Shown here: positions 4,700-37,128 of the stretch, one piece after another
Layout: each line of letters begins with the position of its first letter
Position numbering within the stretch: the first letter of the stretch is position 1
Assembly (NCBI GenBank): GCA_965204745.1
Contig: OZ242010.1
Location: 4,096,001 to 4,160,000, forward strand
Source: Candidatus Latescibacterota bacterium
Lineage (GTDB): Bacteria > Latescibacterota > UBA2968
Length of the DNA stretch: 64,000 nucleotides
Direction: 5' to 3'
Translations under genes and position numbers: made by a program
The notes under the pieces: generated by a model
The model's input: only the letters and a program-made list of their open reading frames with translations
The model's database searches: none
What the model was told of the DNA's origin: nothing

Positions 4700-5339
4700 C
4701 TTGAGTCATTTCTCCCATCTCGCGTCTCACTTGTGGAAGGGCGGTGCGGGGACTGACAACTGACAATGCGAATTAAGAGTAGAAAGCGAGTAAGAAGCAA
4801 GCCGCAACCCATCATCCAAAGACCTGAACGAGGTTCTGTTGACATTTTGTTTTTGAGCGATGAGCGTGACCGCAAAATAGAGAAAGCCTCGATCCTCACC
4901 TCGCCACCCTGCTGCCCGTGCGTGCCCATCCGCTCCGCCCTGCTACCCGTGCGGCCTCACCTCGCCACCCAACCGTGTCTGAATCGCGGATTAAACGGAT
5001 TAGGGGATTGCGCGGATTACCCCACACCGCCCTACCGCCATAGCCCTATCCCCCCGGCCCCCTTTCCTACGAGGAAAGGGGGAGCGCATGGCTTTCTTAA
5101 AGGTTTGCATCCAGGGCTGTTTTGATGGCTTTGGGCGAATGGATCACGCCATGAAAATCCAAAAACCCTTACACAATCCCTCGCACAACCTCTCGCCATT
5201 CCCCCTTCCTCTTAGGAAGAGGGCCAGGGGGTAGGTCCCCCTCGCAAAACCGCTCACAGTTCCCCCTTCCTCGTAGGCACAGGCGTAGCCTACAACGAAG
5301 CGTAGCGAGTAACGGGGCTAGGGGGTAGGTCCCAATTCC
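4700..5339. repeat. Composite repeat cluster: IS5-like end, AATCCGCG repeat and REP hairpins (CCCCTTTCCT-nnn-AGGAAAGGGG)
   Basis: AGGTTCTGTTGACATTT at about 4831. 4900-5240 is an inverted copy of blocks in 18330-18850, and 5047-5339 is an inverted copy of 36828-37125. Confidence 0.85.
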
Positions 5340-5385
5340 AAAAAGTAAAGCCCGAGTTCCCTGTGAACCCGGGCTTTACTTTTTT
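5340..5385. terminator. Intrinsic, probably bidirectional terminator of giant gene A
   Basis: AAAAGTAAAGCCCG...CGGGCTTTACTTTT hairpin with A/T tails on both sides. Confidence 0.8.
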
Positions 5386-5397
5386 GTTTTTCGTCGT

Positions 5398-5589
5398 TCA
5401 GCCTGTCGAGCCAAAGCCGGCGGCGGAGATGAGGAAAAGGGATTCGATCTCTTGCTTTCGCATATAGGCCAGTGCATTCACACTCGCATCGCCAAAGGAC
5501 GGTGCCACGTTCGCGCTGATGGTGAGGAAGAAACTCAGGGTGTTCTCATCGCCATCTTCATCTGTGGCGGTCAGGGAACAGGCTTTCAT
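5398..5589 (-). pseudogene. Vestigial C-terminal fragment (Ig-like piece plus dockerin-like tail) behind gene A
   Basis: SLTATDEDGDENTLSFFLTISANVAPSF...FLISAAGFGSTG*; overlaps the gene A stop by ATGA and is homologous to 36672-36773. Confidence 0.55.
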
Positions 5590-8500
5590 TGGAAGTGGGA
5601 GTCGGGATAGAGGCTTCGGATGTAGGGTTCAATGGCTTGAGCGGTCGTGCGCGTAGCAGTTGGCTCGATGACGTTCCCTCTGACGAGGGCCTCGTTCCGG
5701 AAGAAGAGGACGTATCGAATGATCAGGATTATATCCGAGAACAGCCTCACATCGCCATCGCCATCCACATCGAGAATGTTCTGATTGACCAACGTGTCGA
5801 GGTAGGGTTCAATTTCTTGAGCGGTCTTGCGCGTGGCAGTTGGCTCGATGACGTTCCCTCTGAGGAGGGCCTCGTTCCGGAAGAAGAGGACGTATCGAAT
5901 GACCAGGATTATATCCGAGAACAATCTCACCCGGCCATCGCCATCCACATCCAAGTTGGCACTCGGTATCGCGGATTGGAGTTGAAATTGCACGGTGGTG
6001 TCCATGCCGGCATACTTCAAGACCGGGTACTGATTCGTCGCGCCAAAGGTCCACGGATCATCGCCGCCGGGTTGTCCGTCAAGGTTGGCATTCCAAGTGG
6101 AGAAGATGAGGGTGTAGCCGGTGGGGGATTGGAGCGCGCTGGTCGTCTGGCCGGTAACGCCGCCACCGCCGGCGCTGGTTGTGCAACCGTTGCTGCCGCC
6201 GGATGTACAGCCGCTGGTTTGGGTGTCCCAGTAGCTTGCGGTGCCGCCCGTGCCGGAGCCTATCAACCCGCCGATGGTTGTTAGCGTTCCGCTGGAGCGA
6301 GTAACCACGCCGGTGGAGTAGGAGTTCGTTACGGAGCCGCCTTGGCTTGCTCCGAGCAGTCCGCCGACGTGCTCAGGGCCGCTGACGGATGCGGTGGAGT
6401 AGCTTGAGGTAATCGCGTTGGGCGTCCATCCGACCAACCCGCCGGCGACCCTAGTCGTCGCCGAAACGTTGCCGGTGGAGTAGCAGGCGACGACTGTGCC
6501 GCGCAGGGCGCCGACCAGAGCGGCGGCATATTGGCCTCCCGCAACACTGGCGTTGGTTACGCCGACGGACTCGATGCGGGAGGCGGTGTCGGCGTTGCCG
6601 AATAATCCCACTTCAGTGAGGGAGGGTCGGTTGATGGTCAGGTTGTCGATAGTGTAGCCGTTGCCCTTGAAATCGCCGGTGTATCTGGCGGCGTCTGTGC
6701 CGATGGGTAGCCAGCCGTCGCCGTTGTTCCAGTAGGTGGCGTCTGCTTGGGTGATTTGGTCGTCGCCATTCTCGTCAAAGTCGAGGTTGTTGAGCAGTTC
6801 GTAGCCGGTGCAGGTTCCGGAAGGGCAACCCATCCGGCCATTGCTGGTGATGTCGCGGTCGGGAAAGGCGGCGTTGTAGGTCATGGTATCATTATCGGCG
6901 ACGACCCCATCGCCGTTGAGATCCCAGCGGATGGCATGTAGTTGCGCCAGCGTCTCAATGTCGATGAGGCCATCGCCATCGCTGTCGTAATTGATCGCGT
7001 AGGGCGTGCCCATGACCTCGTCCGAGGGCGTGCTATCGGTCCCACCTGCCAGGGTGGCAAGGACGCGCACTGTGTAGGGTGTGCCTATCGTCAGGTTCTC
7101 TATCGTGTAGGTCGTGGTGCTCCCTCCAGAGACCGTCTCCTGGCGGGAAGAAGTGTTGTAGCTTTGTCCACCGGACTTCCACTGCACCTTGTATCCCGTC
7201 GCGCCGGTTGCCTCGGTCCAAGCCACAACGAGTTGGACCGGCCCCGGCGTCACGCGCACATTGGTGGGCCTGGTTGTCGCCAAGGTCACCATGACTTCCT
7301 CCGAAGGAGCACTGTCGGCTACATTGGTACGCGTGGCGATGACGCGAATCGCGTAGGTCGTCTCTGCGGTCAGCCCAGAAATTTTGTAGGTCGTGGTGCT
7401 CCCGCCAGCGATGGTGGCTTGCCCGTGCGTGGCGGACTCCTCATCGGCGGCGGGATAAGTCTCTGACCCGGATTTCCACTGCACCTTATACCCGGTTGCG
7501 TTGGACACCGCATTCCAAGTCACGGTCAGCGTGTCCACCTTCGCCGCCACCATCACAGTCGGACTGCCCAGCAGGGGAACGCCGGTCACTTCCTCCGAGG
7601 GGGCACTGTCGGCTACATTGGTACGCGTGGCGATGACGCGAATCGTGTAGGTCGTCCCTGCGGTCAGCCCAGAAATTTTGTGGATCGTGGTGCTCCCGCC
7701 AGAGATAGTGGCTTGCCCGTGCGTGGCGGACTCCTCATCGGCGGCGGGATAAGTCTCTGACCCGGATTTCCACTGCACCTTATACCCTGTTGCGTTGGTC
7801 ACCGCATTCCAAGTCACGGTCAGCGTGTCCGCCTTCGCCGCCACCATCACAGTCGGACTGCCCAGCACGGAAACGCCGGTCTGCTCTGCCGACGGCCGAC
7901 CATCGGGCGCACCGGTCTTGGTGGCAATGACGCGCACTGTGTAGGTCGTCCCGGCGAGCAAGTTGGCGATCTTGTAGCGCGTCCCCGTGACGGTCTCCTC
8001 ACGCGAGGCGTCGTAGCTCTGCGCGCCCGATTTCCACTGTACCTTGTACCCCGTCGCATAACTCGCCGCGCGCCAACGCACATCCAAGGTGTCCCTTTGC
8101 ACCGTCACGGTCACACTTGTCGGAATGCCCGGCGGTTGCAAGTTATACTGCACGGTGGTATCCATGCCGGCATATTTCAACACGGGATACTGATCCGCCG
8201 CGCCAAAGGTCCACGGGTCGTCATTGCCAGGCCTGCCATCGACATCCACATTCCAATTGGCGTAGATGTCGTTGTAATCCGTTTCTGACCGCAACGCGCT
8301 GGTGGTCTTGCCCGTGCCGCCAGCACTAGTTGAGAGACTGCTACTTTCCGTATCCCAATAGCTATCGGGGCCTGTGCCAGAACCGGTAGCGAACAGACCG
8401 CCTGTCAGGTCGTTCGAATCCCCAGTCGCCGTCCCCGTGGCGTAGCTTGCCGTAATCGTACCGGCATTCTGACCCACGAGACCGCCAGCCGCTGATCTGG

Positions 8501-11500
8501 TGTTGCTCCCCCCTTGTCCCGCCACCGGCCCGGTAGCATAGGACGCTGTCACTGAAGCACCGCTACCCAGGAGACCGACCAACCCGCCGACTTCATAGAG
8601 GACGCTACTCTCCCAACTTGGCCACTTTTGTGCGGTGGCATGGGAATAGCAAGCCGCGATGTGACCGGCCAGTGCCCGGCCGACCAAACCGCCTACGCCG
8701 TAACGGGCACCCTCAACAAAACCGGTGACATAACAACCCGTTATGCGCCCGCCGTTCTGAGTACCAACTAACCCACCAACGACGTCTGTCGCGTGTACAT
8801 TGACATTGAGCAATCCAACCCCAGAAATATCGCCACTCACGGTTGAAAACAGCCCAACATTGTTCCTTTGGCTTGGCCATCGGTAGGATATATACAGATT
8901 GGAGATGGTCTTGTTATTACCTTTGAACGTACCGGTGTAAGTCCCGATGGGTATCCAGCCGGCACCACTGTTCCAGTAGGTGGCGTCTGCTTGGGTGATT
9001 GCGCCGTCGCCATTCTCGTCAAAGTCCAAGTTGTTGAGCAGTTCGTAGCCTGTGCAGGTTCCGGAAGGGCAACCCATCCGGCCATTGCTGGTGGTATCGC
9101 GGTTGGGAAAGGCGGCGTTGTAGTTCATGGTATCATTATCGGCGACGACCCCATCGCCGTTGAGATCCCAGCGGATGGCATGCAGTTGTGCCAGCGTCTT
9201 AATGTCGATGAGGCCATCGCCATCGCTGTCGTAATTGATCGTTTGGGGCATGCCCATGACCTCGTCCGAGGGCGTGCTATCGGTCCCACCTGCCAGGGTA
9301 GCAAGGACGCGCACCGTGTAGGTCGTGCCAAAAGTCAGGTTCTCTATCGTGTAGGTCGTGGTGCTGCCTCCAGAGACCGTCGCCTGGCGATCAGATGTGT
9401 TGTAGGTCTGTTGTCCGGATCTCCACTGCACCTTGTATCCCGTCGCACCGGTTGCCTCGGTCCAAGCCACAATGAGTTGGACCGGCCCCGGCGTCACGCG
9501 CACATTGGTGGGCCTGGTGGTCGCCAAGGTCACCATGACTTCCTCCGAAGGGGCACTGTCGGCTACATTGGTACGCGTGGCGATGACGCGAATCGTGTAG
9601 GTCGTCCCTGTGGTCAGCCCAGAAATTTTGTAGGTCGTGGTGCCCCCGCCAGCGATGGTAGCTTGCCCGCGCGTGACCAACGCCAGATCGGAGGTGGGAT
9701 AAGTCTCTGACCCGGATTTCCACTGCACCTTATACCCAGTTGCATCGTCCACCACATTCCAAGTCACGGTCAGCGTGTCCACCTTCGCCGCCACCATCAC
9801 AGTCGGAATGCCCAGCACGGGAACGCCGGTCACTTCCTCCGAGGGGGTACTGTCGGCTACATTGGTACGCGTGGCGATGACGCGAATCGCGTAGGTCGTC
9901 CCTGCGGTCAGCCCAGAAATATCGTAGGTCGTGGTGCCTCCGTCAGAGATTGTGGCTTGCCCGTGCGTGGCGGACTGCTCATCGGCGGCGGGATAAGTCT
10001 CTGACCCGGATTTCCACTGCACCTTATACCCGGTCGCCCCGTTCACCGCATTCCAAGTCACGGTCAGCGTGTCCACCTTCGCCGCCACCATCACAGTCGG
10101 AATGCCCAGCACGGGAACGCCGGTCTGCTCTGCCGAGGGCATGCCATCGCGGACACCGGTCTTGGTGGCAATGACGCGCACTGTGTAGGTCGTCCCGGTG
10201 AGCAAGTTGGCGATCTTGTAGCGCGTCCCCGTGACGGTCTCCTCACGCGAGGCATCGTAGTTCTGCGCGCCGGATTTCCACTGTACTTTGTACCCCGTCG
10301 CATTACTCGCCGCAGTCCAACGCACGTCCAAGGTGTCCGCTTTGGGCGTCACGGTCACACTTGTCGGAATGCCCGGCGGTTGCATTGCAAATTGTGCGGT
10401 GGTGTCCATGCCGGCATATTTCAACACGGGATACTGATCCGCCGCGCCAAAGGTCCACGGGTTGTCATTGCCAGGCCTGCCATCGACATCCACATTCCAA
10501 TTGGTGTAGATGCCGTTGTAATCCGTTTCTGACCGCAACGCGCTGGTGGTCTTGCCCGTGCCGCCAGCACTAGTTGAGAGACTGCTACTTTCCGTATCCC
10601 AATAGCTATCGGGGCCTGTGCCAGAACCGGTAGCGAACAGACCGCCTGTCAGGTCGTTCGAATCCCCAGTCGCCGTCCCCGTGGCGTAGCTTGCCGTAAT
10701 CGTACCGGCATTCTGACCCACGAGACCGCCAGCCGCTGATCTGGTGTTGCTCCCCCCTTGTCCCGCCACCGGCCCGGTAGCATAGGACGCTGTCACTGAA
10801 GCACCGCTACCCAGGAGACCGACCAACCCGCCGACTTCATAGAGGACGCTACTCTCCCAACTTGGCCACTTTTGTGCGGTGGCATGGGAATAGCAAGCCG
10901 CGATGTGACCGGCTAGTGACCGGCCGACCAAACCGCCTACGCCGTAACGGGCACCCTCAACAAAACCGGTGACATAACAACCCGTTATGCGCCCGCCGTT
11001 CTGAGCGCCAACTAACCCACCAACGACGTCTGTCGCGTGTACATTGACATTGAGCAATCCAACCCCAGAAATATCGCCACTCACGGTTGAAAACAGCCCA
11101 ACATTGTTCCTTTGGCTTGGATATCGGTAGGATATATACAGATTGGAGATGGTCTTGTTATTACCTTTGAACGTACCGGTGTAAGTCCCGATGGGTATCC
11201 AGCCGGCACCCCTGTTCCAGTAGGTGGCGTCTGCTTGGGTGATTTGGTCGTCGCCATTCTCGTCAAAGTCCAAGTTGTTGAGCAGTTCGTAGCCTGTGCA
11301 GGTCCCGGAAGGACAACCCATCCGGCCATTGCTGGTGGTGTCGCGGTTGGGAAAGGCGGCGTTGTAGTTCATGGTATCATTATCGGCGACGACCCCATCG
11401 CCATTGAGATCCCAGCGGATGGCATGCAGTTGTGCCAGCGTCTTAATGTCGATGAGGCCATCGCCATCCCTGTCGTAATTGATCCTTTGGGGCATGCCCA

Positions 11501-14500
11501 TGACCTCGTCCGAGGGCGTGCTATCGGTCCCACCTGCCATGGTAGCAGTGACGCGCACGGTGTAGGTCGTGCCAAAAGTCAGGTTCTCTATCGTATAGGT
11601 CGTGGTGCTGCCTCCAGAGACCGTCTCCTGGCGGGAAGAGGTGTTGTAGGTCTGTTGCCCGGACCTCCACTGCACCTTGTATCCCGTCGCACCGGTTGCC
11701 TCGGTCCAACGCACAATGAGTTGGTCCGGCCCCGGGGTCACGCGCACATTGGTGGGCCTGGTTGTCGCCAAGGTCACCATGACTTCCTCCGAAGGGGCAC
11801 TGTTGCCGGCCGTTGTGGTGTGCGTGGCGATGACGCGAATCGCGTAGGTCGTCTCTGTGGTCAGCCCAGAAATTTTGTGGATCGTGGTGTTCCCGCCTGC
11901 GATAGTGGCTTGCCCGCGCGTGGTCAACGCCAGATCGGAGGTGGGATAAGTCTCTGACCCGGATTTCCACTGCACCTTATACCCGGTTGCGAGGGGCACC
12001 GCATTCCAGGTCACGGTCAACGTGTCCACCTTCGCACTCACCTCCACACCCGTCGGGCTACCCAGCGTGAGAAGGGTGATCACTTCCTCCGAAGGGGCAC
12101 TGTCGGCTACATTGGTACGCGTGGCGATGACGCGAATCGCGTAGGTCGTCCCTGGGGTCAGCCCAGAAATATCGTGGGTCGTGGTGCCCCCGCCAGCGAT
12201 AGTGGCTTGCCCGTGCGTGGCGGACTCCTCATCGGCGTTGGGATAAGTCTCTGACCCGGATTTCCACTGCACTTTGTAGCTGGTCACCCCGTTCACCGCA
12301 TTCCAAGTCACGGTCAGCGTGTCCACCTTCGCATTCACCTCCACACCCGTCGGGCTACCCAGCAGGGGAACGCCGGTCTGCTCGGCCGAGGGCCGGCCAT
12401 CGCGGACACCGGTCTTGGTGGCAATGATACGCACTGTGTAGGTCGTCCCGCCGATCAAGTTGGCGATCTTGTAGCGCGTATCCGTGGTGATGGCCTGACG
12501 CGAGACGGCGTAGTTCTGCGCGCCGGATTTCCACTGCACCTTGTACCCCGTCGCATTACTCGGCGCACGCCAACGCACGTCCAAGGTGTCCCTTTGCACC
12601 GTCACGGTCACACTTGTCGGAATGCCCGGCGGTTGCATTGCAAATTGTGCGGTGGTGTCCATGCCTGCATATTTCAACACGGGATACTGATCCGCCGCGC
12701 CAAAGGTCCACGGAGCGTCATTGCCAGGCCTGCCATCGACATCCACATTCCAGTTGGCGTAGATGCCGTTGTAATCCGTTTCTGACCGCAACGCGCTGGT
12801 GGTCTGGCTCGTGCCGCCAGAACTGGATGAGCGACCACTACTTTCACTATCCCAGTAACTATGGGACACTCCGGATCGTGCAAACCCGATCAATCCGCCT
12901 AGTTGGCTGGAGTCATGTCTGCGCCCAGTGACTGTCCCCGTGGCATAGCTGGTACTAACCGAACTAGGATAAATGTCCAACCTCCCCACCAAACCGCCGA
13001 CCCTGTTATTTCCAGTCACCGGCCCGATAGCGTAGGACGCTATCACCGTAGCTTTTAGTCTGCCCACCAAACCGCCGGCCCCGTCATGATCCCACCCTCC
13101 GGAGACCTCAGCATTGGCATAGCTGGCCGCGATGACGGTATTATTACCGTTTGATTCACCCGCTAAACCGCCCACATCGTGACCAGTACCCTCAACGCGA
13201 CCCGTGACATAACAGCCCAGGATGCGACCACCCACCTGATTACCGACCAACCCACCCACTTGATTTCTGCCTCTTACATTGACACTTTTCAGCCCCAGAC
13301 CGGAAATGTTGCCGCTGACACGGCCGAACAGCCCAACATCATCCTGACCACGGTTGATGTGCAGGTTGGAGATGGTCTTGTTATTGCCCTTGAACGTGGT
13401 TGAGTAGGTGCCTCCGATGGGCGACCAGTTGGGGTAGGTGTCGGCAGAGGTTACGCTCCCGCTCCCGTCGGTGTCGAAATTTAGGTTGTTGAGCAGTTCG
13501 TAGCCGGTGCATGTCCCGGAAGGACAACCCATCCGGACGTTGCTGGTGGTGTCGCGGTTGGGAAAGGCGGCGTTGTAGTTCGTGATATCACTATCGGCGA
13601 CGATCCCATCGCCGTTGAGATCCCAGCGGATGGCATTGAGTTGCGCCAGCGTCTTAATGTCGATGAGGCCATTGCCATCGCCATCGTAATCGATCCCTTG
13701 GGGCGTGCCCATGACCTCGTCCGAGGGCGTGCTATCGCCCCCACCTGACAGGGTAGCAGTGACGCGCACCGTGTAGGTCGTGCCAAAAGTCAGGTTCTCT
13801 ATCGTGTAGGTCGTGGTGCTCATCCCAGAAACCGTCTCCTGGCGATCAGATGTGTTGTAGGTCTGTTGTCCGGACCTCCACTGCACCTTGTAGCCCGTCG
13901 CGCCGGTTGCCTCGGTCCAACGCACAATGAGTTGGACCGGCCCCGGCGTCACGCGCACATTGGTGGGTTTGGTTGTCGCCGAGGTCACCATGACTTCCTC
14001 CGAGGGGGCACTGTCGGCTAAATTGATATTGGTACTCGTGGCGATGACGCGAATCGTGTAGGTCGTCCCTGCGGTCAGCCCAGAAATTTTGTAGGTCGTG
14101 GTGCGCCCGTCAGAGATTGTGGCTTGCCCGTGCGTGGCGGCCTGAGAATCGGAGGTGGGATAAGTCGTTGCCCCGGATTTCCACTGCACTTTGTAGCCGG
14201 TCGCCCCGTTCACCGCATTCCAAGTCACGGTCAGCGTGTCCACCTTCGACGCCACCATCACAGTCGGACTGCCCAGCAAGGCGAGAACGCCGGTCTGCTC
14301 TGCCGAGGGTGTGCTATCGTTCGCACCGGTCTTGGTGGCAATGACACGCACTGTGTAGGTCGTCTCGCCGAGCAAGTTGGGGATCTTGTAGCGCGTCCCC
14401 GTGACGATCCCCTCACGCGAGGCGGCGTAGCTCTGCATGCCGGATTTCCACTGCACCTTGTACCCCGTCGCATAACTCGACGCACGCCAACGCACATCCA

Positions 14501-18193: not shown

Positions 18194-18276
18194 CTGAAGT
18201 CTCCTTTGCAAAAGCTATCGCGCAGACCGGGCGCGGCTTTTTCTCTGCGTTCAAAATCGCTATGGTGAACGAGAAA

Positions 18277-23933: not shown

Positions 23934-23934
23934 G

Positions 23935-24468: not shown

Positions 24469-24496
24469 AGCAACTTACGGCTTTTGTGAACAAGTG

Positions 24497-24709: not shown

Positions 24710-24713
24710 TTTC

Positions 24714-27890: not shown

Positions 27891-27932
27891 GGGAGAATCC
27901 CGTAAAGAGATGGTGCGACCAAGTGCTTTCTA

Positions 27933-28193
27933 TTATCGAGGATTGGAACGGATTTGGCAAACAGAGTTTTCAATGCCCATTTCTGCCTCTCCATCCTCCG
28001 CAACAGCGATACCATACCTTTTCATCGCATCTACAATATCTTCATTCACCATGCTTTCAATAAACCACCTTTCACCTACATAATCTCCACCTGCATTCAT
28101 CCCTTCTAACAAAATATCAATATACTGAACAAGCGTTTCCGCCGTACCCAAACCCATCAAAGGATCAATAGGAACTGTTTTCGTTTTCGCCAT
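27933..28193 (-). CDS. Small hypothetical protein, low GC
   Basis: GAGGAGG RBS before ATG 28193; 86 aa, acidic. Confidence 0.55.
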   Translation of the reverse strand: MAKTKTVPIDPLMGLGTAETLVQYIDILLEGMNAGGDYVGERWFIESMVNEDIVDAMKRYGIAVAEDGEAEMGIENSVCQIRSNPR

Positions 28194-28247
28194 TGCAACC
28201 TCCTCACAATTCGGACGCCAACCTTTTTGCCCGTTCAATATCAAAAT

Positions 28248-28710
28248 CAGTAGTCAGTAGGTTGTGTTGACATTTGGGATATTTTTTGATCGTGTTGACA
28301 TTTCATTTTTTTCTGACGTTACGCACAGATTAGCAAATGTATTGTGTTGCTTGCTCATTTAAGGCGTTTGGTCCTTTGATGGCGTTGCGCGAGGGGACCT
28401 ATCCCCCGGCCCCGTTATTCGCTTCGCTCATTGTAGGCTACGCCTGTGCCTACGAGGAAAGGGGGAGCGCATGGCTTTCTTAAAGGTTTGTATCCCTAGC
28501 TGCTTTGATGGCGTTTGTGACCTATCCCCCGGCCCCTTTCCTACAAGGAAAGGGGAGTAAAGTTCCTTTGATGGCTTATATCAATGGCTACTCTGATGGC
28601 GTTGTGCGAGGGCATAAAGCGATTAAAAATCCCTTATCAATCCCCTCGCACAACCTCTCGCCATTCCCCCTTCCTCGCAGGAAGGGGGCCAGGGGGTAGG
28701 TCCCAATTCC
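28248..28710. repeat. IS5-MITE-like end plus REP cluster upstream of cassette B
   Basis: TAGGTTGTGTTGACATTT at about 28258, then sequence closely similar to 1500-1812. Confidence 0.8.
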
Positions 28711-28727
28711 CATCGTCATTTTACCAC

Positions 28728-28756
28728 TTGACAAATAATAGCGTAATTTTTAATTT
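28728..28756 (+). promoter_or_regulatory. sigma70-type promoter of cassette B
   Basis: TTGACA-17 nt-TAATTT. Confidence 0.6.
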
Positions 28757-28840
28757 TTTACCCATTCGCTATTTCGATTTTGAGCGCGGAGGAAAGGCCG
28801 TGCCCGGTCTGCGCGACAGCTTTTGCAAAGGAGACTTCAG

Positions 28841-29029
28841 ATGATTCCCGCCATTTTTCGACGTTGTTCAAACCTGTTTAGAGGCCACCGTTCTCCTGCG
28901 AAAACGGGCGTTCATGGTGCCCATTCCCGTCTTGGAGTGCGGTCCTATTTCATTGCAAAACAGTCCGTTAGGATGATCAGTACAGTGTACCCCCCCCCCC
29001 CCCCCCCCTCGGAGAGGGGGACAAAATGA
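28841..29029 (+). CDS. Leader ORF of gene B ending in poly-Pro; stop overlaps the gene B start (ATGA)
   Basis: AAAGGAGA RBS; MIPAIFRRC...FIAKQSVRMISTVYPPPPPPSERGTK*. Confidence 0.6.
   Translation: MIPAIFRRCSNLFRGHRSPAKTGVHGAHSRLGVRSYFIAKQSVRMISTVYPPPPPPSERGTK
28990..29008 (+). repeat. C19 homopolymer, putative phase-variation tract
   Basis: 19 consecutive C, 17 nt before the gene B ATG. Confidence 0.85.
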
Positions 29030-32000
29030 TGCCCCGCTACGCTCACTTGTTGGCCCTGGTCGCGCTGGGCATGCTGGTGGCATCGGGGCCTGCTTTTGCC
29101 CAAACCGACTACGACATGGACAACGACCGCCTGATTGACATCACCTCCTTGGCGCAACTGAATGCCATTCGTTGGGATCTCAATGGCGATGGTGTTGTGT
29201 CGAGCACCGACTCTACAAACTATTTCACCGCCTTCAGTAACCCCGCCTCGGGCATGGGGTGTCCGTCCGCCGGCTGTAATGGCTACGAACTGCTCAACAA
29301 CTTGGACTTTGACGAGAACAACGACAACTCAATCACCTCAGCAGACGCCACCTATTGGAACAACGGCGCCGGCTGGCTACCCATCGGCACAAGCGCCAAC
29401 AGATACACAGGCAATTTCAAGGGCAACGGATACACCATAAACAACCTGTTCATCAACCGGTCCAACACCGAGCACATAGGGCTGTTCGGCTATACTGGAT
29501 CCGGCTACAGGGTAGAAACCCTAGGCGTAACTAACGCCAATGTAACGGGGAAAAACTATACCGGCATTCTGATAGGCGCCGGTGAGAATGGAGGCACAGT
29601 CGTCGCCTGTTACACTACTGGCTCGGTCACCGGCACCGGTACTTCTACCGGTGGTCTGGTAGGATACATAGACGGAACTATCTCCACTAGCTACTCCACT
29701 GCATCCGTCAGCGGAAATCGCGAAAACGGCGGTCTGTTGGGATTTCGGTATGGCAACAGTACCTCTGTAACAAACTCCTACTCCACCGGCAACGTCAGCG
29801 GCACAGGAAGCAACATCGGCGGGCTAATAGGCAGCTTTGCCCTGAGCGGTAGCGTTTCCGCCAGTTACTGGGATACCCAAACCAGCAACCGGAATAGCAG
29901 CCCCGGCGGCGGCACAGCACAGACCACCGACGCGCTCCGATCTCCCACCGGCTACACCGGCATCTACTCCACATGGAACGCCAACATAGATGGCAACGCC
30001 GGCAACGACGATCCCTGGGACTTCGGAACGTCATCGCAGTATCCGGTGCTGAAGTACGGCGGTCATTCCCTGGTTGCCCAGGGCCGACCGGCCACCGACT
30101 ACGACATGGACAACGACCGCCTGATTGACATCACCACCTTGGCGCAACTCAACGCCATTCGCCACGACCTCAACGGCAATGGCGACGCTACCCACGCCGA
30201 TTATGGCGCCGCCTTTCCCCTCCGCAACACCAGCAATACCGGCCGGATGGGTTGCCCGTCCGGGACCTGCACTGGCTACGAGTTGCTCAACAACTTGGAT
30301 TTTGACGAGAACAACGACGGCGCAATCACCCAAGCAGACACCACCTACTGGAATGGCGGCGCCGGCTGGGCACCCATCGGCAGTAGCAACACCGCCCCGT
30401 ACACCGCCACATTTGAGGGCAACGGCAAGACGATCTCCCACCTGTACATCAACCGCTACGTCAACTATTCGGGATTTTTCGCAAGTACGGATACCACTGC
30501 CCACATCCGCTCTTTGGGGTTGGTCAACGCGGTGATCAATACGGGTCAGGGCACGGTGGGCGCGCTGGTGGGTCTGAACAAGGGTCGGATCGCGGCGAGT
30601 TACGTCACGGGGTCGGTCAAGGCGAACACCAATGTCGGCGGGTTGGTGGGCGCCGCTCAGAGGGGGTCGTACATCGTGGCGAGTTACGCCACGGCGTCTG
30701 TGGTGTGCAATCAGTCGGGGCCGTGGGGCACTGGCGGAGGGTTGGTAGGTGCCAATGGTTCGGGTGCGACGATCGCGTCGAGCTACTCGCTGGGATCAGT
30801 GACGGGGGCCTGCCTGCACAAGCATGGGCTGGCGGAAAACTCAGGTACAGTGACCGATAGCTACTGGGACACGCAAACAAGCGACATTGCCGATGATAGC
30901 GATACTGTTGCGCCGGAGGGCAAGCTGACTGCCGACTTACAATCGGTCACGTCTGCGAGCGGCATCTATGCCAACTGGGACGATCTGACCATAGATGCTT
31001 CGGGGGCCAACAATGATGATCCCTGGACCTTTGGCACGACGAATCAGTATCCGGTCTTGAAGTTTGCCGGCCTGGACACCACGGCGCAGTACGCTGCCCA
31101 ACCCGTGAATTACGACACGGATAGCGATGGCCTCCTCGAGGTCTCGACCTTGGCCCAACTGCATGCCATGCGCTGGGATCTCAATGGCGATGGGGTCGTC
31201 GCCGATAGTGATGCCATGACCTACAACGCCGCCTTTCCCAACGGGAACTTGTCAGCGAGCAAGGGGTGTCCTTCCACAGGTTGCACTGGCTACGAACTGC
31301 TCAACAACTTGGACTTTGACGAGAACAACGACGGCGCGATCACCCAAGCAGACGCCACCTACTGGAATGGCGGTGCCGGCTGGGACCCTGTGGGGCCTTA
31401 CGGCGGCACGTTCAAAGGCAACAACAAGACGATCTCCCACTTGTACATCAACCGGGGGTCTCGGCATAATACAGGATTGTTCCATGCGGTTGATGGCGAT
31501 GTTTCGGGGTTGGGGTTGTTGAATGTGAATGTGACCGGTGCTGACCGCGTGGGTGGTCTGACCGGTAATCAAGGTGGTGGGGGCACCATCTCGTCGTGTT
31601 ATGTGACGGGTCGCGTTTCGGGGTCGCGGTGGGGTGTGGGTGGTTTGGTTGGTCGGTCTTATCGCACTTCGGGCACTAATCGCATTGTGAGCAGCTACGC
31701 GCTCGTCTCTGTGCGGGTTCCTGCACATGTGACGAGTGACGGATTGGCCGGCGGTTTGGTGGGTTGGCTGACCGATCAGACCGAGGTGGTGGCGTCTTAC
31801 GCGCTGGGCTCTGTGTTCGCGGGACACAGCAACGCGGTGGCCGGCGGGTTGGTGGGTCAAATCGCGAGCGGCGGTGGCGTGACCGCCAGTTACGCGACGG
31901 GCGCAGTCACGGGTGCCGGCACGAAAGGCGGGTTGGTGGGCAGTTCGGCTGGTACAGTGACCGATAGCTACTGGGACACGCAAACAAGCGGCATTGTCGA

Positions 32001-35000
32001 TGATAGCGATACGGTTGCGCCGGAGGGCAAGCTGACCTCCGACTTACAATCGATCACGTCTGCGAGCGGCATCTATGCCAACTGGGACGATCTGACCATA
32101 GATGCTTCGGGGACCAACGATGATGATCCCTGGACCTTTGGCACGACAAAGCAGTATCCGGTCTTGACGTTTGCCGGCCTGGACACCACGGCGCAGTACG
32201 CTGCCCAACCCGTGAATTACGACACGGATAGCGATGGCCTCCTCGAGGTCTCGTCCTTGGCCCAACTGCATGCCATGCGCTGGGATATCAATGGCGATGG
32301 TGCCATAGACTCAAGTGCCACGACCGCCGATACGACCGCCTACAACGCCGCCTTTCCCAACGGGAACTTGTCAGCGAGCAAGGGTTGCCCTTCCAGCGGT
32401 TGCACTGGCTACGAACTGCTCGCCAACCTGGACTTTGACGAGAACAACGATGGCGCAATCACCCAAGCAGACGCCACCTACTGGAATAGCGGCCAAGGCT
32501 GGATGCCCATCGGCTCCGACGCCAGCCCAGCGTTACGATACACAGGCGATTTCAAAGGCAACGGCTACACCGTCCAAAACCTGTTCATCAGCCGCAACAC
32601 CGTTAGCTACCAAGCACTGTTCGGCGGCACCGGCACCAACTCCCGCATCGAGTCACTGGGCGTAACCGACGCCGATGTTACGGCAGACGACTTTAGTGGC
32701 ATTCTGGTCGGCGGCAATCGCGGCGAAATCGTCGCCTGCTACACCACCGGTCGCATGACGGGCGACAATGTCGTCGGCGGTCTGGTCGGCTGGACCGGAG
32801 GCTCCATTTCCACAAGCTACTCCCTCGCATCCGTCAGCGCAACTGAGAGGCTCGGCGGATTGGTAGGCTCAAAAGCCGCCGCCGGCTCCATAACAAACTC
32901 CTACTCCACCGGCGCGGTCAGCCTCTCCAGCGGGTCGATGACATCTATCGGCGGGCTGTTGGGCGAGTCGAATGCCGGCACAGGCACGGTTAGCGGCAGC
33001 TACTGGGATACCCAAACCAGCGGGCGCACAACCAGCCTCGGCGGTAGCGGCGCGGCGGGCAAGACGACCAGCGATCTTCAGAGCCCCACCACCTACGGTG
33101 CCACCAGCAACGACACCTACTACGGTTGGAACGCCAACATAGACGGACAACCCGGCAACGACGATCCGTGGACCTTTGGCGCGATGGATCAGTATCCGGT
33201 CTTGAAGTATGCCGGCCTGGACACCACCGTGCAATTTCAGCTCCAACCCGCGGTCGTGACGTTGGCACTGACGCCCTCGTCGATCTCGGAAAACGGCGGG
33301 ATGAGCACTGTGACCGCGACGCTGGCATACCCATCGAGCGCGGCGACGACGATCACGGTGCGCCCTGTGGCGGGGGCTTACACGGTGGCGGCGGATTCGA
33401 CGATCACCATACCGGCCGGGAGCACTGCGAACGTGTCGGATACGGTGGTCATCACAGCGGTGGACAATACCCAAGACGCGCCTAATCGCGACGTGGACAT
33501 GTCCGTTGTGGCGGGCAACGCCCAAGGCGCGGGCAGTGTGACCGAGGCGACTTTAACGATCACAGACGACGACCCTGCACCGACAGCGACGTTGGCGGCG
33601 TCACCGGCGTCGATTTCGGAGAACGGCGCGGTTTCGACGGTCACGGCGTCGCTCTCGCGTCCATCGAGCACGGCGACGACGATCACGGTGCGTCCTGTGG
33701 CGGGTGCTTACACGGTGGGGGCGGATACGACGATCACCATCGCGGCCGGGGACACGATTAACGCGTCGGACACGGTGGTCATCACAGCGGTGAACAATAC
33801 CCAAGACGCGCCTAATCGCGACGTGACCGTGTCCGGTGTGTCGCGCAACGCCCAAGGCGCGGGCAGTGTGACCGGGGCGGCTTTGACGCTGACAGACGAC
33901 GACGCTGCGCCGGACGTGACGATGGTTTTGTCGCCTGCGTCGATTACAGAGAACGGCGGTGTCTCGACCGTGACAGCGAGGCTGTCTCACACGTCGAGCG
34001 ATCCGACGACGATTACGGTGACAGTGGCACCTGTGTCACCTGCGGTTATGACCGACTACACGATAAGTACGCCGGCCACGCTGACCGTCGCGGCGGGGCA
34101 AACGATGAGCACGGGCACCGTGACGATCACAGGGGTGAATAACGCCGATGCTACGGGGAACAAGACGGTGACCGTGTCGAGTACGCTAACCAACAGCGTA
34201 GGCACGGGATCGGTCACTGATGTGACGCTGACGCTTACCGATGACGACGTGCCGAACGTGACGTTGGTTTTGACTCCTTCGTCGATTACGGAGAATGCCC
34301 AGGTTTCCACGATCACGGCGACGCTGGATCGCATCACAAACATGGCGACGACGGTCACGGTTTCAGCGACCGCGGTGGCCCCTGCGGTTGCGGGCGATTT
34401 TACGCTATCGACCGAGACCACGCTGACCTTCGCGGCGAATGTGACGACGAGCACGGGCGCCGTGACGATCACCTCGGTGAACGACACGACCGATGCACCG
34501 GACAAGCGCGTGACCGTGTCTGCAACGGTGACGGGTGGCAATGGGGCGTCGCTATCGTCTGCCGTGACCCTGACGATCACAGACGATGAGGCCGCGCCGG
34601 ATGTGGCACTGACGCTGTCGCCCGCGTCGATTGCAGAGACCGGCGGTGTTTCGACGATCACGGCGACGCTGTCGCATGCGTCGAGCGCGGCAACGACGAT
34701 CACAGTGCGTCCGGTGGCGGGTGCTTACACGGTGGGGTCGGATTCGACGATCACCATCGCGGCAGGGAACACGGCGAACGCGTCGGACACAGTAGAGATC
34801 ACGGCCGTGGACAACGCGACCGATGCGCCCAACAACGATGTGACCGTGTCTGTTGTGGCGAACAACGACCAAGGCGCAGGCAGTGTGACCGGCATGGATT
34901 TGACGATCACAGACGATGACGCCGCGCCGAACGTGACACTAATGCTGTCGCCCGCGTCAATCTCGGAGAACGGCGGCGTGAGCACGGTGAGCGCGACGCT

Positions 35001-36675
35001 GACACACCCATCGAGCGCGGCGACAACGATCACGGTACGCCCGGTGGCGAATGCTTATACCGTAGGGTCGGATTCGACGATCACCATCGCGGCAGGGAAC
35101 ACGGCGAACGCGTCGGACACGGTGGCACTCACCGCCGTGGACAACGACATAGACGCATCAGACAACGCGGTGATGGTGCAGACCGCCGCTGTGGAGAACG
35201 ACCACGGCGCGGGCACCGTGCAGGCTGCGACGTTGACGATCACCGATGACGACGAGGCGGCGATTGACGTGTCGGCGATGACCACGACGACGGTCAGGCT
35301 CCACACGACAGAGTCGGGCAGGGCAGAGACCTTCACGGTCACGCTCGCCTCCGAGCCGACGGGGAACGTAGCCCTCTCGGTGGTCAGTTCAGACACGACG
35401 GAAGGCACTGTATCGCCCTCGGTGCTGACCTTCTCATCGACAACATGGCGCACGGCGCAAACCGTGACCGTGACCGGGCAGGACGATACTCCCGCCGCCG
35501 TCGATGGCAACCAGAACTATACGGTCACCCTTTCGGTGAACCAGACGGATACGCAGGACACCAACTACGACGCGCTCACCGCGATCAGCGTGTACATGGT
35601 CAACCGCGATAACGATTTCGGCTTGGACATCAGCGCGCTGACCGGGCAGGCGACAGAGGCCGGTGCCTCGGCGACCTTCACGGTGGCCCTGCTGACGCAA
35701 CCCACGGCGGCGGTGACGATTTCGGTGACGAGCCAAGACCCGAGCGAGGGGCGGGTTGAGCCTGCGATGCTGACCTTCACGACGTCAGGCTATAACACGG
35801 CACAAACCGTGACCGTGACCGGGCAAGACGACATCATCGACGACGGGAACGTCACCTGGACGGTGCGACTCGCCTCGTCAAGCGGCGATGCCAACTACAA
35901 CACCCTTTCGGACGAGGATGTTCCAGTGACGACGACCGACGATGAAGATGCGCCGACCGTGACGTTGGTGCTGATGCCCTCGTCCATCTCGGAAAACGGC
36001 GAGGTTTCCACGATCACGGCGACCCTATCGCACCCATCGAGCGCGATCACGACGATCACGGTCTCTGCTACGCCTGTGTCCCCTGCGACTGCGAGCGACT
36101 TCACGCTATCGAGTGCAGACACGCTGATCATCGCGGCGACGACCACAACGAGCACGGGCACCGTGACGATCACCGCAGAGGACAACAACGACCAGGCAGA
36201 CGAGAAGATGGTCAGGGTGTCTGCAACCGCAAACAACGCCCAAGGCATCACCGATCCTTCGCCCGTGACCCTGACCCTGACCGATGACGAAACACCGAGT
36301 GCCAACTTGGATGTGGATGGCGATGGCCGGGTGAGATTGTTCTCGGATATAATCCTGGTCATTCGATACGTCCTCTTCTTCCGGGAAGAGGCCCTCCTCA
36401 GAGGGAACGTCATCGAGCCAACTGCCACGCGCAAGACCGCTCAAGAAATTGAACCCTACCTCGACACTTTGGTCGGTCAGAACATTCTCGATGTGGATGG
36501 CGATGGCGATGTGAGGCTGTTCTCGGATATAATCCTGATCATTCGATACGTCCTCTTCTTCCGGAACGAGGCCCTCGTCAGAGGGAACGTCATCGAGCCA
36601 ACTGCTACGCGCACGACCGCTCAAGCCATTGAACCCTACATTCGAAGCCTCTATCCCGACTCCCACTTCCAATGA
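29026..36675 (+). CDS. Giant secreted adhesin-like protein B: signal peptide, 4 GLUG-like beta-helix modules, Calx-beta/cadherin-like Ig repeats, tandem dockerin-like C-terminus
   Basis: 2549 aa with signal peptide ending AFA|Q; VTL.L.P.SISENGG...LTITDDD repeats; C-terminal ~126 aa nearly identical to gene A. Confidence 0.9.
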   Translation: MMPRYAHLLALVALGMLVASGPAFAQTDYDMDNDRLIDITSLAQLNAIRWDLNGDGVVSSTDSTNYFTAFSNPASGMGCPSAGCNGYELLNNLDFDENNDNSITSADATYWNNGAGWLPIGTSANRYTGNFKGNGYTINNLFINRSNTEHIGLFGYTGSGYRVETLGVTNANVTGKNYTGILIGAGENGGTVVACYTTGSVTGTGTSTGGLVGYIDGTISTSYSTASVSGNRENGGLLGFRYGNSTSVTNSYSTGNVSGTGSNIGGLIGSFALSGSVSASYWDTQTSNRNSSPGGGTAQTTDALRSPTGYTGIYSTWNANIDGNAGNDDPWDFGTSSQYPVLKYGGHSLVAQGRPATDYDMDNDRLIDITTLAQLNAIRHDLNGNGDATHADYGAAFPLRNTSNTGRMGCPSGTCTGYELLNNLDFDENNDGAITQADTTYWNGGAGWAPIGSSNTAPYTATFEGNGKTISHLYINRYVNYSGFFASTDTTAHIRSLGLVNAVINTGQGTVGALVGLNKGRIAASYVTGSVKANTNVGGLVGAAQRGSYIVASYATASVVCNQSGPWGTGGGLVGANGSGATIASSYSLGSVTGACLHKHGLAENSGTVTDSYWDTQTSDIADDSDTVAPEGKLTADLQSVTSASGIYANWDDLTIDASGANNDDPWTFGTTNQYPVLKFAGLDTTAQYAAQPVNYDTDSDGLLEVSTLAQLHAMRWDLNGDGVVADSDAMTYNAAFPNGNLSASKGCPSTGCTGYELLNNLDFDENNDGAITQADATYWNGGAGWDPVGPYGGTFKGNNKTISHLYINRGSRHNTGLFHAVDGDVSGLGLLNVNVTGADRVGGLTGNQGGGGTISSCYVTGRVSGSRWGVGGLVGRSYRTSGTNRIVSSYALVSVRVPAHVTSDGLAGGLVGWLTDQTEVVASYALGSVFAGHSNAVAGGLVGQIASGGGVTASYATGAVTGAGTKGGLVGSSAGTVTDSYWDTQTSGIVDDSDTVAPEGKLTSDLQSITSASGIYANWDDLTIDASGTNDDDPWTFGTTKQYPVLTFAGLDTTAQYAAQPVNYDTDSDGLLEVSSLAQLHAMRWDINGDGAIDSSATTADTTAYNAAFPNGNLSASKGCPSSGCTGYELLANLDFDENNDGAITQADATYWNSGQGWMPIGSDASPALRYTGDFKGNGYTVQNLFISRNTVSYQALFGGTGTNSRIESLGVTDADVTADDFSGILVGGNRGEIVACYTTGRMTGDNVVGGLVGWTGGSISTSYSLASVSATERLGGLVGSKAAAGSITNSYSTGAVSLSSGSMTSIGGLLGESNAGTGTVSGSYWDTQTSGRTTSLGGSGAAGKTTSDLQSPTTYGATSNDTYYGWNANIDGQPGNDDPWTFGAMDQYPVLKYAGLDTTVQFQLQPAVVTLALTPSSISENGGMSTVTATLAYPSSAATTITVRPVAGAYTVAADSTITIPAGSTANVSDTVVITAVDNTQDAPNRDVDMSVVAGNAQGAGSVTEATLTITDDDPAPTATLAASPASISENGAVSTVTASLSRPSSTATTITVRPVAGAYTVGADTTITIAAGDTINASDTVVITAVNNTQDAPNRDVTVSGVSRNAQGAGSVTGAALTLTDDDAAPDVTMVLSPASITENGGVSTVTARLSHTSSDPTTITVTVAPVSPAVMTDYTISTPATLTVAAGQTMSTGTVTITGVNNADATGNKTVTVSSTLTNSVGTGSVTDVTLTLTDDDVPNVTLVLTPSSITENAQVSTITATLDRITNMATTVTVSATAVAPAVAGDFTLSTETTLTFAANVTTSTGAVTITSVNDTTDAPDKRVTVSATVTGGNGASLSSAVTLTITDDEAAPDVALTLSPASIAETGGVSTITATLSHASSAATTITVRPVAGAYTVGSDSTITIAAGNTANASDTVEITAVDNATDAPNNDVTVSVVANNDQGAGSVTGMDLTITDDDAAPNVTLMLSPASISENGGVSTVSATLTHPSSAATTITVRPVANAYTVGSDSTITIAAGNTANASDTVALTAVDNDIDASDNAVMVQTAAVENDHGAGTVQAATLTITDDDEAAIDVSAMTTTTVRLHTTESGRAETFTVTLASEPTGNVALSVVSSDTTEGTVSPSVLTFSSTTWRTAQTVTVTGQDDTPAAVDGNQNYTVTLSVNQTDTQDTNYDALTAISVYMVNRDNDFGLDISALTGQATEAGASATFTVALLTQPTAAVTISVTSQDPSEGRVEPAMLTFTTSGYNTAQTVTVTGQDDIIDDGNVTWTVRLASSSGDANYNTLSDEDVPVTTTDDEDAPTVTLVLMPSSISENGEVSTITATLSHPSSAITTITVSATPVSPATASDFTLSSADTLIIAATTTTSTGTVTITAEDNNDQADEKMVRVSATANNAQGITDPSPVTLTLTDDETPSANLDVDGDGRVRLFSDIILVIRYVLFFREEALLRGNVIEPTATRKTAQEIEPYLDTLVGQNILDVDGDGDVRLFSDIILIIRYVLFFRNEALVRGNVIEPTATRTTAQAIEPYIRSLYPDSHFQ

Positions 36676-36773
36676 AAGCCTGTTCCCTGACCGCCACAGA
36701 TAAAGATGGCGATGGCAAAATTGGATTCGACGATTTCCTCATCTCCGCCGCCGACTTTGGCTCGACAGGCTGA
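36672..36773 (+). pseudogene. Vestigial dockerin/EF-hand tail
   Basis: Translates as MKACSLTATDKDGDGKIGFDDFLISAADFGSTG*. Confidence 0.55.
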
Positions 36774-36788
36774 ACGACAAAAAAAAAC

Positions 36789-36827
36789 AAAAGCCCGGGT
36801 TCACAGTGAACTCAGGCTTTACTTTTT
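36789..36827 (+). terminator. Intrinsic terminator of gene B
   Basis: AAAGCCCGGGTTCAC-A-GTGAACTCAGGCTTT followed by ACTTTTT. Confidence 0.75.
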
Positions 36828-37128
36828 GGAATTGGGACCTACCCCCTAGCCCCGTTACTCGCTACGCTTCGTTGTAGGCTACGCCTGTGCCTACGAGGAA
36901 AGGGGGAACTGTGAGCGGTTTTGCGAGGGGGACCTACCCCCTGGCCCCCTTCCTAAGAGGAAGGGGGAATGGCGAGAGGTTGTGCGAGGGATTGTGTGTA
37001 AGGGTTTTTGGATTTTCATGGCGTGATCCATTCGCCCAAAGCCATCAAAACAGCCCTGGATGCAAACCTTTAAGAAAGCCATGCGCTCCCCCTTTCCTTG
37101 TAGGAAAGGGGGCCGGGGGGTAGGTCCC
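36828..37128. repeat. REP cluster, inverted copy of 5047-5339
   Basis: Near-identical reverse complement by direct comparison. Confidence 0.85.

Follow-up and report, generated by a model that had tools for sequence, protein, structure and literature searches.

REP/REPIN-RAYT systems consist of palindromic repeats arranged in inverted doublets, together with a RAYT. Among the mobile insertion cassettes (MICs) covered in the accessible part of PMC4337579 are those of the Xanthomonas TALE genes, in which a repeat-protein passenger lies between inverted repeats related to insertion sequences (ISs). These carry no transposase of their own, 5-bp target duplications are seen at some copies and solo ends beside others, and cognate intact elements are present in the genome (PMC4337579). 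The available text of PMC6542083 mentions MICs at the level of definition only, and the main text of PMC12993501, as far as accessible, mentions FN3 proteins, whereas the terms transposase, dockerin and phase variation are absent from it. Among the matches listed in our literature searches there was no published account of the system described here; the combination of poly-C slippage, leader peptide, translational coupling and phase variation gave no match, and neither did that of DUF559 with repetitive extragenic palindromic.

The window analysed, a 64,000-nt stretch of Candidatus Latescibacterota bacterium contig OZ242010.1, contains two giant genes, A and B. The initial annotation had described both as units mobilised or recombined through REP-derived ends, a form for which it knew of no described system; MICs, however, had already been described (PMC4337579, accessible part). 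The best explanation, and in our judgment a probable one, is that A and B belong to a set of IS-framed cassettes which are shuffled by homologous recombination and equipped with a poly-C leader switch.

A dispersed family of surface-protein cassettes

Genes A and B are two members of a family of some 40 self-contained gene cassettes dispersed around the chromosome. The family comprises 41 paralogues with a common C-terminus, its coding sequence amounts to ~270 kb (roughly 5% of the chromosome), and distant loci carry near-identical whole cassettes (95-97.5% over 5.6-7.0 kb). The proposal that promoter-leader-CDS-terminator units exist and relocate was thus borne out, by the number of paralogues, by these distant copies and by the empty sites described below. 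Along both A and B the best-matching paralogue shifts, which indicates mosaic coding regions. Within the units checked, the longest ORF encodes the surface protein and no transposase is found. The encoded proteins appear adhesin-like, judging by their domains: that of A has a signal peptide-like start, GLUG-motif units, 18 FN3 stretches and the C-terminal double repeat of the family, and the C-terminus of B gives a weak dockerin-like match. The final 382 nt of gene B are 92-99% identical in most paralogues. Near-identical DNA occurs in sponge metagenomes, and no RNA data set was among the matches listed.

At and beside the gene A cassette the following features are present:

4766-4831, + strand: solo remnant of an IS982 right end, its first 40 nt identical to the intact IS982 end; its insertion target is an ACTGACA heptamer repeat
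4832-4847, + strand: IS5-family terminal inverted repeat fused to the IS982 end (hybrid)
5043-5239, unstranded: hairpin-REP doublet with a degenerate left arm (left edge approximate)
5240-5339, - strand: REP half adjoining the terminator; the 14-mer at 5326-5339 is part of it
5340-5384, - strand: terminator-like hairpin of gene A (z -9.0; no call in the strict scan)
5586-18008, - strand: gene A, 4140-aa secreted mosaic repeat protein
17939-18193, - strand: leader ORF of A with its own Shine-Dalgarno, read through the poly-C run
18025-18044, - strand: C20 run ahead of the ribosome-binding site of the main ORF of A
18277-18306, - strand: sigma-70-like promoter of A, TTGACA-18-TATATT (11/12 match)
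18324-18735, unstranded: REP doublet (cores 18330-18529) that opens with the 14-mer at 18324-18337, then a second doublet (right edge approximate)

Those at and beside the gene B cassette are:

28260-28303, + strand: two IS5-family terminal repeats directed at gene B (28260-28275 and 28288-28303)
28394-28710, unstranded: REP doublet terminating in the 14-mer at 28697-28710
28728-28733, + strand: -35-like TTGACA of B; the -10 box is under the scan threshold, and the strict scan gave no full promoter match
28841-29029, + strand: 62-aa leader ORF of B, with 4 nt (ATGA) common to its stop and the main start
28990-29008, + strand: C19 run ahead of the ribosome-binding site of the main ORF of B
29026-36675, + strand: gene B, 2549-aa secreted mosaic repeat protein
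36779-36827, + strand: terminator-like hairpin of gene B (z -3.5; no call in the strict scan)
36828-37128, unstranded: 14-mer at 36828-36841, REP half and REP doublet

An Rfam search of the window returned one tRNA only.

Exact copies of the 14-mer GGAATTGGGACCTA were found at all four positions around A and B at which the initial annotation had placed them: 5326-5339 (-), 18324-18337 (+), 28697-28710 (-) and 36828-36841 (+). With up to two mismatches allowed the window holds five matches as against 0.28 expected, a number reached in none of 100 shuffles. The arrangement was also as claimed: on the 3' side of both genes the hairpin is followed by a directly abutting 14-mer, on the 5' side TTGACA (18301-18306; 28728-28733) is found 17 nt inward of the motif, and the REP copies at ~1812, 5240 and 37128 lack the AATTCC extension. 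The outward orientation of the 14-mers reflects their position as outer ends of the hairpin-REP doublets that adjoin A and B. Beyond them, common flank DNA runs on for 300-680 nt on three of the four sides, and the 3' flank of B (36828-37128) is 98% identical over 298 nt to that of A.

Genome-wide, 17 of the 20 copies of the 14-mer are located at the ends of this one family of secreted mosaic repeat-protein genes, a distribution at odds with the independent placement that had been considered as an objection. The expectation that the motif accompanies surface-protein genes therefore held as regards location; as regards pairing it did not, since exact copies on both sides were found in only three of the 41 cassettes. 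This rules out the 14-mer as an obligatory cassette terminus, and most likely it is an inner passenger of the cassette rather than its mobilising end.

Insertion boundaries and the spread of the cassettes

The cassettes have most likely spread by means of leftover IS ends and recombination between copies. Inverted IS982 ends are present on both sides of seven of the 41 cassettes and 11 more have one such end, approximately half of the family being devoid of any. The paired frames use two right ends, together with cassette-specific modules that are rare elsewhere. Four of the seven display an exact 5-bp duplication (one base is mismatched in the other three), as do 10 of 12 intact IS copies examined; these matches are weakly informative, since most targets are a heptamer repeat with only two common 5-mers. 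The genome holds 15 full copies of IS982, the transposase of which scores above the NF033520 cut-off, nine of the IS5-family element and ~260 IS5-type ends. Cassette 4597022 is bounded by IS5 terminal repeats, measures 7950 nt and shows a TA duplication; over 7019 nt it is 95.7% identical to cassette 416281, which has an IS982 frame. Every one of the 14 genomic copies of the IS982+IS5 hybrid end adjoins a cassette, and so do 11 of the 13 copies of the 3' module. A 1.3-kb IS with 52 full copies, which we take to be IS110-like, is located near a few cassettes. Candidate mover genes that we assume to be Rpn-like gave no Pfam or NCBIfam match; they were rejected as movers in this genome, only one of 26 matches lying within 2 kb of a cassette end.

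The search for empty sites in relatives, suggested by the initial annotation, was successful for three of the 13 cassettes tested (A, 4597022 and 1712054) and yielded none for the other 10. The site of A is empty in 19 of 20 congeners, as read in relatives of 77-87% identity only, and this supports the cassette idea. For 4597022 an exact empty site exists in the congener G018, and the filled copy carries the TA duplication. No classical empty site was found for B, the immediate flanks of which lie far apart in the relatives searched. The readable insertion boundaries consist of IS982/IS5 terminal repeats accompanied by target duplications and lie 220-680 nt beyond the promoter or terminator; at the two sites that could be read the boundary is an IS end, and none was seen there at a REP or 14-mer end. 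Among the matches listed for 17500-37450 in public contigs from four runs, pieces end at repeats and no joint spans a cassette. A cassette flank fused to the opposite flank of another cassette was observed in seven of 39 looks in G016 and G018 (five distinct junctions), with an expectation of 3.7% per look; the looks are non-independent, and two were chosen after the adjacency had been noticed. For the 10 cassettes without an empty site, 14 of 20 flanks are unexplained by such swaps, and gene-order breaks are also frequent away from cassettes.

Genes A and B themselves lack inverted paired IS ends. A has a single hybrid end (4766-4847) and no IS end on its 5' side (18324-18735); the IS5 ends of B are on the 5' side only, both in the same direction, and no IS end follows its 3' REP doublet. 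With no paired frame and no readable target duplication at either gene, A and B are solo-end derivatives at best. According to the explanation that we favor, the cassettes would be non-autonomous transposons that entered new sites within a frame of leftover ends, either from IS982 (5-bp duplication) or from the IS5-family element (TA duplication), presumably mobilised in trans by the cognate transposases of intact copies; the evidence for this step comes from other family members, and A and B would have followed the same route. The hairpin REP and the 14-mer would be carried inside the frame, beside promoter and terminator. Homologous recombination at the common leader, the C-terminus and the REP arrays, to which the products observed point, would then exchange coding modules, outer ends and chromosomal flanks; the solo or mismatched ends seen at A and B, for example, would result from this.

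The REPs themselves invite another reading, namely that DUF559 cuts hairpin-REP doublets and that whole REP-cassette-REP units move or recombine there; we take DUF559 to be a PD-(D/E)XK-type family. The genome contains 436 REP cores in 246 clusters, and among 244 adjacent pairs 149 face inward and six outward. Of 39 family ORFs, 17 have outward-facing cores on both sides, as compared to 10 of 2971 other long ORFs, four of which are family-like; A and B are flanked by REPs on both sides in the absence of paired IS ends. The 3' flank of A changes to a 5'-type module within the REP hairpin, so that REPs probably act as recombination substrates, and the common 3' flank of B ends at a doublet end. 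The single DUF559 gene of the genome is itself bracketed by these REPs in the same orientation, and the gene is REP-flanked in G018, G008 and G009 as well. REP enrichment at family ORFs is, however, expected from common descent, no boundary at a REP end was found whereas the two readable ones are IS ends, two-sided 14-mers are rare, and REP abundance tracks DUF559 poorly: G016 has 34 cores and no stand-alone DUF559 gene, whereas G008 and G009 possess the gene and have six and eight cores. In G018 the family is flanked by other repeats, with no IS982 end at the four loci examined. The RAYT/HUH gene that REP-driven movement had led the initial annotation to expect was not found in the genome (97.65% complete, one contig), which gave no match to PF01797 or NF047646; a RAYT or Y1 transposase was rejected as the mover on the basis of these two profiles. 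What stands of that proposal is probable recombination at REPs, as on the 3' side of A; mobilisation through REP ends appears unlikely. Similarly improbable is a DUF559-driven, REP-addressed system which, after or alongside IS capture, moves and reshuffles 8-13-kb cassettes with poly-C switches; if true, it would represent genome-wide surface-protein diversification in a probable sponge symbiont, with A, B and the 3' switch of A among its products.

Mosaic coding regions and swapped flanks would also be accounted for if no transposition took place at all. Homologous recombination or gene conversion into arrays of REPs, MITEs and IS remnants that were already present would then be the sole means of spread, and the IS ends would simply belong to the homology arms. 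Landing pads are plentiful, given the numbers of REP clusters and IS5-type ends, many cassettes have no IS982 end, and at 4597022 an earlier MITE may have occupied the site into which the cassette later recombined. We nevertheless consider this reading unlikely, in view of the two right ends and rare cassette-specific modules of the IS982-paired frames, and of the exact empty site and TA duplication of the 4597022 unit. That the pattern is a coincidence of ordinary tandem or ectopic duplications, with REPs independently inserted beside strong promoters and terminators, is highly improbable: REPs are indeed abundant, and lie within 60 nt of five of 30 similar non-family terminator hairpins, but the figure for family terminators is 27 of 33, which also have the junction sequence and the module downstream in common. 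These common junctions largely refute it, and the concentration of 14-mers at cassette ends speaks against it as well.

Leader ORF and poly-C run

The frame of the leader ORF is interrupted by a stop in none of 28 copies, as compared to 28 and 26 of 28 in the other two frames, and its synonymous share is 0.44 (0.23 expected). A slippage-prone repeat lies inside a leader ORF with a Shine-Dalgarno, which we infer to be translated. As assembled, the leader ORF of A extends 70 nt past the main start. This anatomy suggests that the leader ORF with its poly-C run probably switches each gene: translation of the leader would pass through the run, the length of which would set the outcome as a stop on the main start (coupling), a fusion to the main ORF or an overrun, and each cassette would thereby have its own slippage switch. 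The state of any single switch is unreliable, since a lone assembly may misstate the length of homopolymers.

Comparison with known systems

As far as the accessible part of PMC4337579 shows, the TALE MICs are the closest known system, and the family matches them in passenger, ends, duplications, solo ends and cognate elements. At the family level there are inverted IS-derived ends, no internal transposase and cognate ISs elsewhere, as well as target duplications and empty sites (4597022, four of the seven IS982 frames, and the empty site of 1712054). The ends are those of IS982 (two right ends) and the IS5 family, whereas those of the TALE MICs are of Tn3; moreover, the frame here also contains REP doublets, a promoter, a terminator and a poly-C leader that is probably translated, and ~41 dispersed copies exchange flanks among them (PMC4337579, same part). 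Passenger genes between IS-derived ends are likewise found in transporter ISs (tIS) and composite transposons (PMC9330008, available text), but the cassettes have neither an internal transposase nor two intact flanking ISs. The inward-facing palindromic doublets, and the one nuclease gene bracketed by repeats, are reminiscent of REP/REPIN-RAYT systems; unlike these, the bracketed gene is DUF559 and the genome has no RAYT/Y1 transposase match.

One surface-protein family would thus join IS-end framing, module and flank exchange between dispersed copies, and a slippage switch for each gene. If this is correct, an uncultured bacterium runs combinatorial surface variation of a type for which pathogens have been the main object of study, and the cassettes act as drivers of chromosome rearrangement as well. 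The proposed switch itself resembles that of pil1 in Streptococcus gallolyticus, in which, according to the available part of PMC3894217, a slippage-prone repeat in an upstream leader ORF likewise controls a surface-structure gene. Here, unlike in pil1, the repeat is a mononucleotide C run; instead of attenuation at a terminator, the apparent outcomes are coupling, fusion or overrun where the main ORF starts, and no fewer than 28 genes have the proposed switch (PMC3894217, same part).

Genes A and B and the REP-derived 14-mer

The 14-mer, by which the initial annotation proposed that two giant cassettes are mobilised or recombined, is found exactly at 5326-5339, 18324-18337, 28697-28710 and 36828-36841, and five matches at up to two mismatches were obtained compared to 0.28 expected. 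The bracketed genes are:

5586-18008, minus strand: gene A, 4140 aa, bracketed by 14-mers
29026-36675, plus strand: gene B, 2549 aa, bracketed by 14-mers

The gene A protein contains GLUG motifs and 18 FN3 stretches; no Pfam family was found for the whole gene B protein, the C-terminus of which has a weak dockerin-like match. Both proteins start with a segment judged from sequence to be signal-peptide-like. The 14-mer does lie outside a terminator-like structure, as strong hairpins directly precede the 3' motifs of A and B (a strict terminator scan did not call them); its position outside a promoter was borne out by a TTGACA 17 nt inward of the 5' motifs, but the promoter scan was positive for A and negative for B. 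The 3' ends of the two genes (5547-5967 and 36294-36714) match at 98% over 421 nt and their leaders (18002-18391 and 28643-29032) at 84% over 390 nt, both inverted. Since A and B are mutually inverted, the intervening 10-kb or 31-kb segments could invert via these repeats; no inversion joint between A and B was seen among the public-contig matches listed.

The genome around the window (5.48 Mb, a single contig) holds 20 exact copies of the 14-mer, and the GGAATT extension is present on 18 of its 436 REP cores. As family-type genes have 17 of the 20 copies at their ends (13 identified from motif distance, four added from other comparisons), the motif is tied to surface-protein genes and not placed independently of them. 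Inverted 14-mer pairs around such genes were present at three of 41 cassettes, but the others have variants or different repeats. Among 244 adjacent REP core pairs, 149 face inward, six outward and 89 are tandem; REP cores thus form mostly inward-facing doublets and the 14-mer is the outer end of a doublet abutting the gene unit, which accounts for the seemingly inverted cassette ends. Outward REPs on both sides were found for 17 of 39 family ORFs versus 10 of 2971 other ORFs measuring 200 aa or more, four of these ten being family-like. REP bracketing of family ORFs is strongly enriched, yet not independent of descent.

REPs were also seen within IS-derived elements. Window 1496-1926 is a complete IS5-derived MITE with an internal REP doublet, and the genome has about 60 IS5-derived terminal-repeat pairs spaced 200-600 nt. 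The left end of IS982-derived MITEs of 250-390 nt continues straight into a hairpin REP, pointing to repeated REP capture inside IS ends. Examples on the window's contig are:

335918-336252: IS982-derived MITE
745477-745834: IS982-derived MITE
1781392-1781726: IS982-derived MITE

The cassette family and its IS ends

A common C-terminal DNA ends 41 loci in this genome; the 320-nt promoter-leader gave 44 BLAST matches, part of them short, and the family ORFs sum to 272 kb. Complete cassettes from distant loci share 95-97.5% identity across 5.6-7.0 kb, and cassette 235547 matches gene B at 95.4% over 6630 nt. The closest paralogue changes from one segment to the next along A and B, indicating mosaic coding regions. 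No substantial match to the C-terminal DNA was found among 40 relatives; related genes in the congeners G018 and G016 end in an older dockerin-like tail, of which a remnant appears, by sequence, to be kept in the window genome's cassettes as part of their 3' untranslated region. Four family genes (276179, 4171138, 4491909 and 5306571) have early stops or frameshifts in the assembly, either as genuine lesions or as homopolymer errors.

The IS982 element (988 nt, 15 full copies, above the NF033520 cut-off) shows a 5-bp duplication at 10 of 12 copies examined. Its right end forms an inverted pair around seven cassettes and is present on one side only of 11 more, 220-680 nt beyond the terminator or promoter; duplications at the seven paired frames are exact in four cases and have one mismatch in three. 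Of 265 terminal repeats of the IS5-family IS (818 nt, nine full copies), 236 are bordered by TA on the outside. Two such repeats enclose cassette 4597022, a 7950-nt unit; TTA borders it on the left, TAG on the right, and the empty site in G018 reads TTAG. All 14 copies of a hybrid end (IS982 tip plus IS5 repeat) adjoin a cassette. Of these, 13 are on 5' sides and one, at 4766-4847, is on the 3' side of A, which thus bears a 5'-type end there. On that side the changeover from the usual 3' module falls inside a REP hairpin; the 5' side of A is without an IS end. For B, the 5' side carries two IS5 repeats; the 3' side carries none, and the DNA in common with A ends there at the end of the REP doublet. 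The G018 members retrieved have a downstream REP, which we take to be of the GTAG type, and no nearby IS982 end, so the hairpin-REP frame looks specific to the lineage of the window's genome, as does the IS982 frame.

Several family cassettes of G018 and G016 have genes just upstream that we take to be Rpn-like; in the window's genome one only does. No family match was obtained for these genes, whose positions open the list below; the other entries are features of the window, among them an element with at least eight related genomic copies that sits between genes adjacent in relatives:

L016:8722-9699, L020:7100-7600 and L102:182-1165 (retrieved stretches): presumed Rpn-like genes
22740-24530: TnpB-family element
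27933-28244, minus strand: small AT-rich ORF, 103 aa, with AcrB on one side and cassette B's IS5 repeats on the other
41086-41159: tRNA gene, adjoining the next
41379-44183, plus strand: 934-aa protein with dockerin/EF-hand and HYDIN-like Ig domains

Part of the conspecific contigs continue past 22713-22740 into different sequence, which suggests that the TnpB-family element is missing from some conspecifics. The 103-aa ORF is covered by conspecific contigs and had no family match.

Empty sites, exchanged flanks and the leader

Empty sites in relatives were found for three of 13 cassettes tested (A, 4597022 and 1712054). The left neighbour of A, an ABC ATPase gene, and its right neighbour, an S9 peptidase gene, are spaced by at most about 150 nt in 18 of 20 congeners; the spacing is 668 nt in G016 and 92 kb in G018. 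Ten of these gaps, retrieved and 33-145 nt in length, contain no hairpin-REP core. The other ten cassettes are at gene-order breaks, and order is often broken elsewhere in the genome too. In G016, the site of cassette 4597022 (L095, G016:C1:1472800-1477700) is occupied by another insertion and carries a local duplication, which suggests a reused target. In G016 and G001, 5 nt lie between the gene ending at contig position 4094057 and that starting at window 37190; in the window's genome these two genes are collinear and 39 kb apart, separated by:

contig 4094058-4133183 (starting some 1.9 kb ahead of the window and reaching window 37183): intervening block

Within this block are cassettes A and B, along with genes that relatives have at several unrelated locations; an IS5-type repeat lies near its start, and its other end falls just past the REP doublet of B.

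Neighbours of broken cassette flanks were retrieved in G016 and G018 (39 looks, 20 flanks). In seven looks, covering six flanks, the neighbour was placed no more than 2.5 kb from another cassette's end, zones that make up 3.7% of the genome; the binomial tails are 0.0005 and 0.003, with looks non-independent and two picked after adjacency was seen. The five distinct junctions are:

3194777/235547
3378031/4165847
2613714/3194777
2396727/2252688
5294070/280466

All five join a 3' flank collinearly to a 5' flank, the pattern predicted by crossovers between cassettes. No such swap accounts for 14 of the 20 flanks. The 5-mers beside IS982 tips agree across the swap in three of four testable pairs, weak evidence as two 5-mers dominate.

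A filter on start codon, Shine-Dalgarno and two motifs was passed by 28 leaders, in each of which an ORF some 50 codons long runs into a C run of 12-25 (23 leaders) or 4-6 (five leaders). Stops before the run occur in none of the 28 in the leader frame versus 28 and 26 in the other frames. Six copies deviate in length by 12 nt and one by 1 nt; the synonymous share in 21 equal-length leaders is 0.44 versus 0.23 expected, an expectation uncorrected for transitions. As assembled, with homopolymer lengths from one assembly being unreliable, 12 leaders are in frame with the main ORF, eight (including B) have a 4-nt ATGA overlap, two stop just before the main start and six (including A) overrun it by 70-130 nt. 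Two G018 copies have the same design. We infer that leader and C run may act as a slippage switch via translational coupling.

Origin of the cassettes and known systems

IS-end frames, duplications, empty sites, mosaic coding regions, exchanged flanks and the structure of the leader, all directly seen, make it likely that cassettes would have been inserted within frames of IS ends, presumably mobilised in trans, and would then have undergone homologous exchange through leader, C-terminus and REP arrays, each gene, a putative adhesin, being switched by its poly-C leader; A and B may have had such a history. Spread by recombination only, in keeping with the swapped junctions, is improbable. That the arrangement is a coincidence is hardly credible.

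Movement of cassettes by active REP ends with DUF559 is unlikely. The single DUF559 gene of the genome is bracketed by hairpin REP:

contig 4675056-4675430 (L024): DUF559 gene, immediately next to the outer end of the REP

Stand-alone DUF559 genes of G018, G008 and G009 (L021-L023) are REP-flanked too; no account of a DUF559-REP link was found in open-access papers. Beside the single DUF559 gene of the window's genome lies a family-type cassette with LRR-like repeats. The readable boundaries of moved units are IS982 or IS5 ends further out. The self-contained units proposed in the initial annotation are retained, but the 14-mer or REP as their mobilising end found no support at the readable sites.

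A profile search of the genome for a REP-end mobiliser found no RAYT or Y1 transposase, and the REP-RAYT system was rejected as a model. No paper describing this combination of features was found in the open-access literature. The family parallels the Xanthomonas TALE mobile insertion cassettes (PMC4337579), solo ends included: as a whole it has the sequence characters of such cassettes, while A and B themselves lack paired ends. The cassette leader, in turn, resembles the pil1 switch (PMC3894217).
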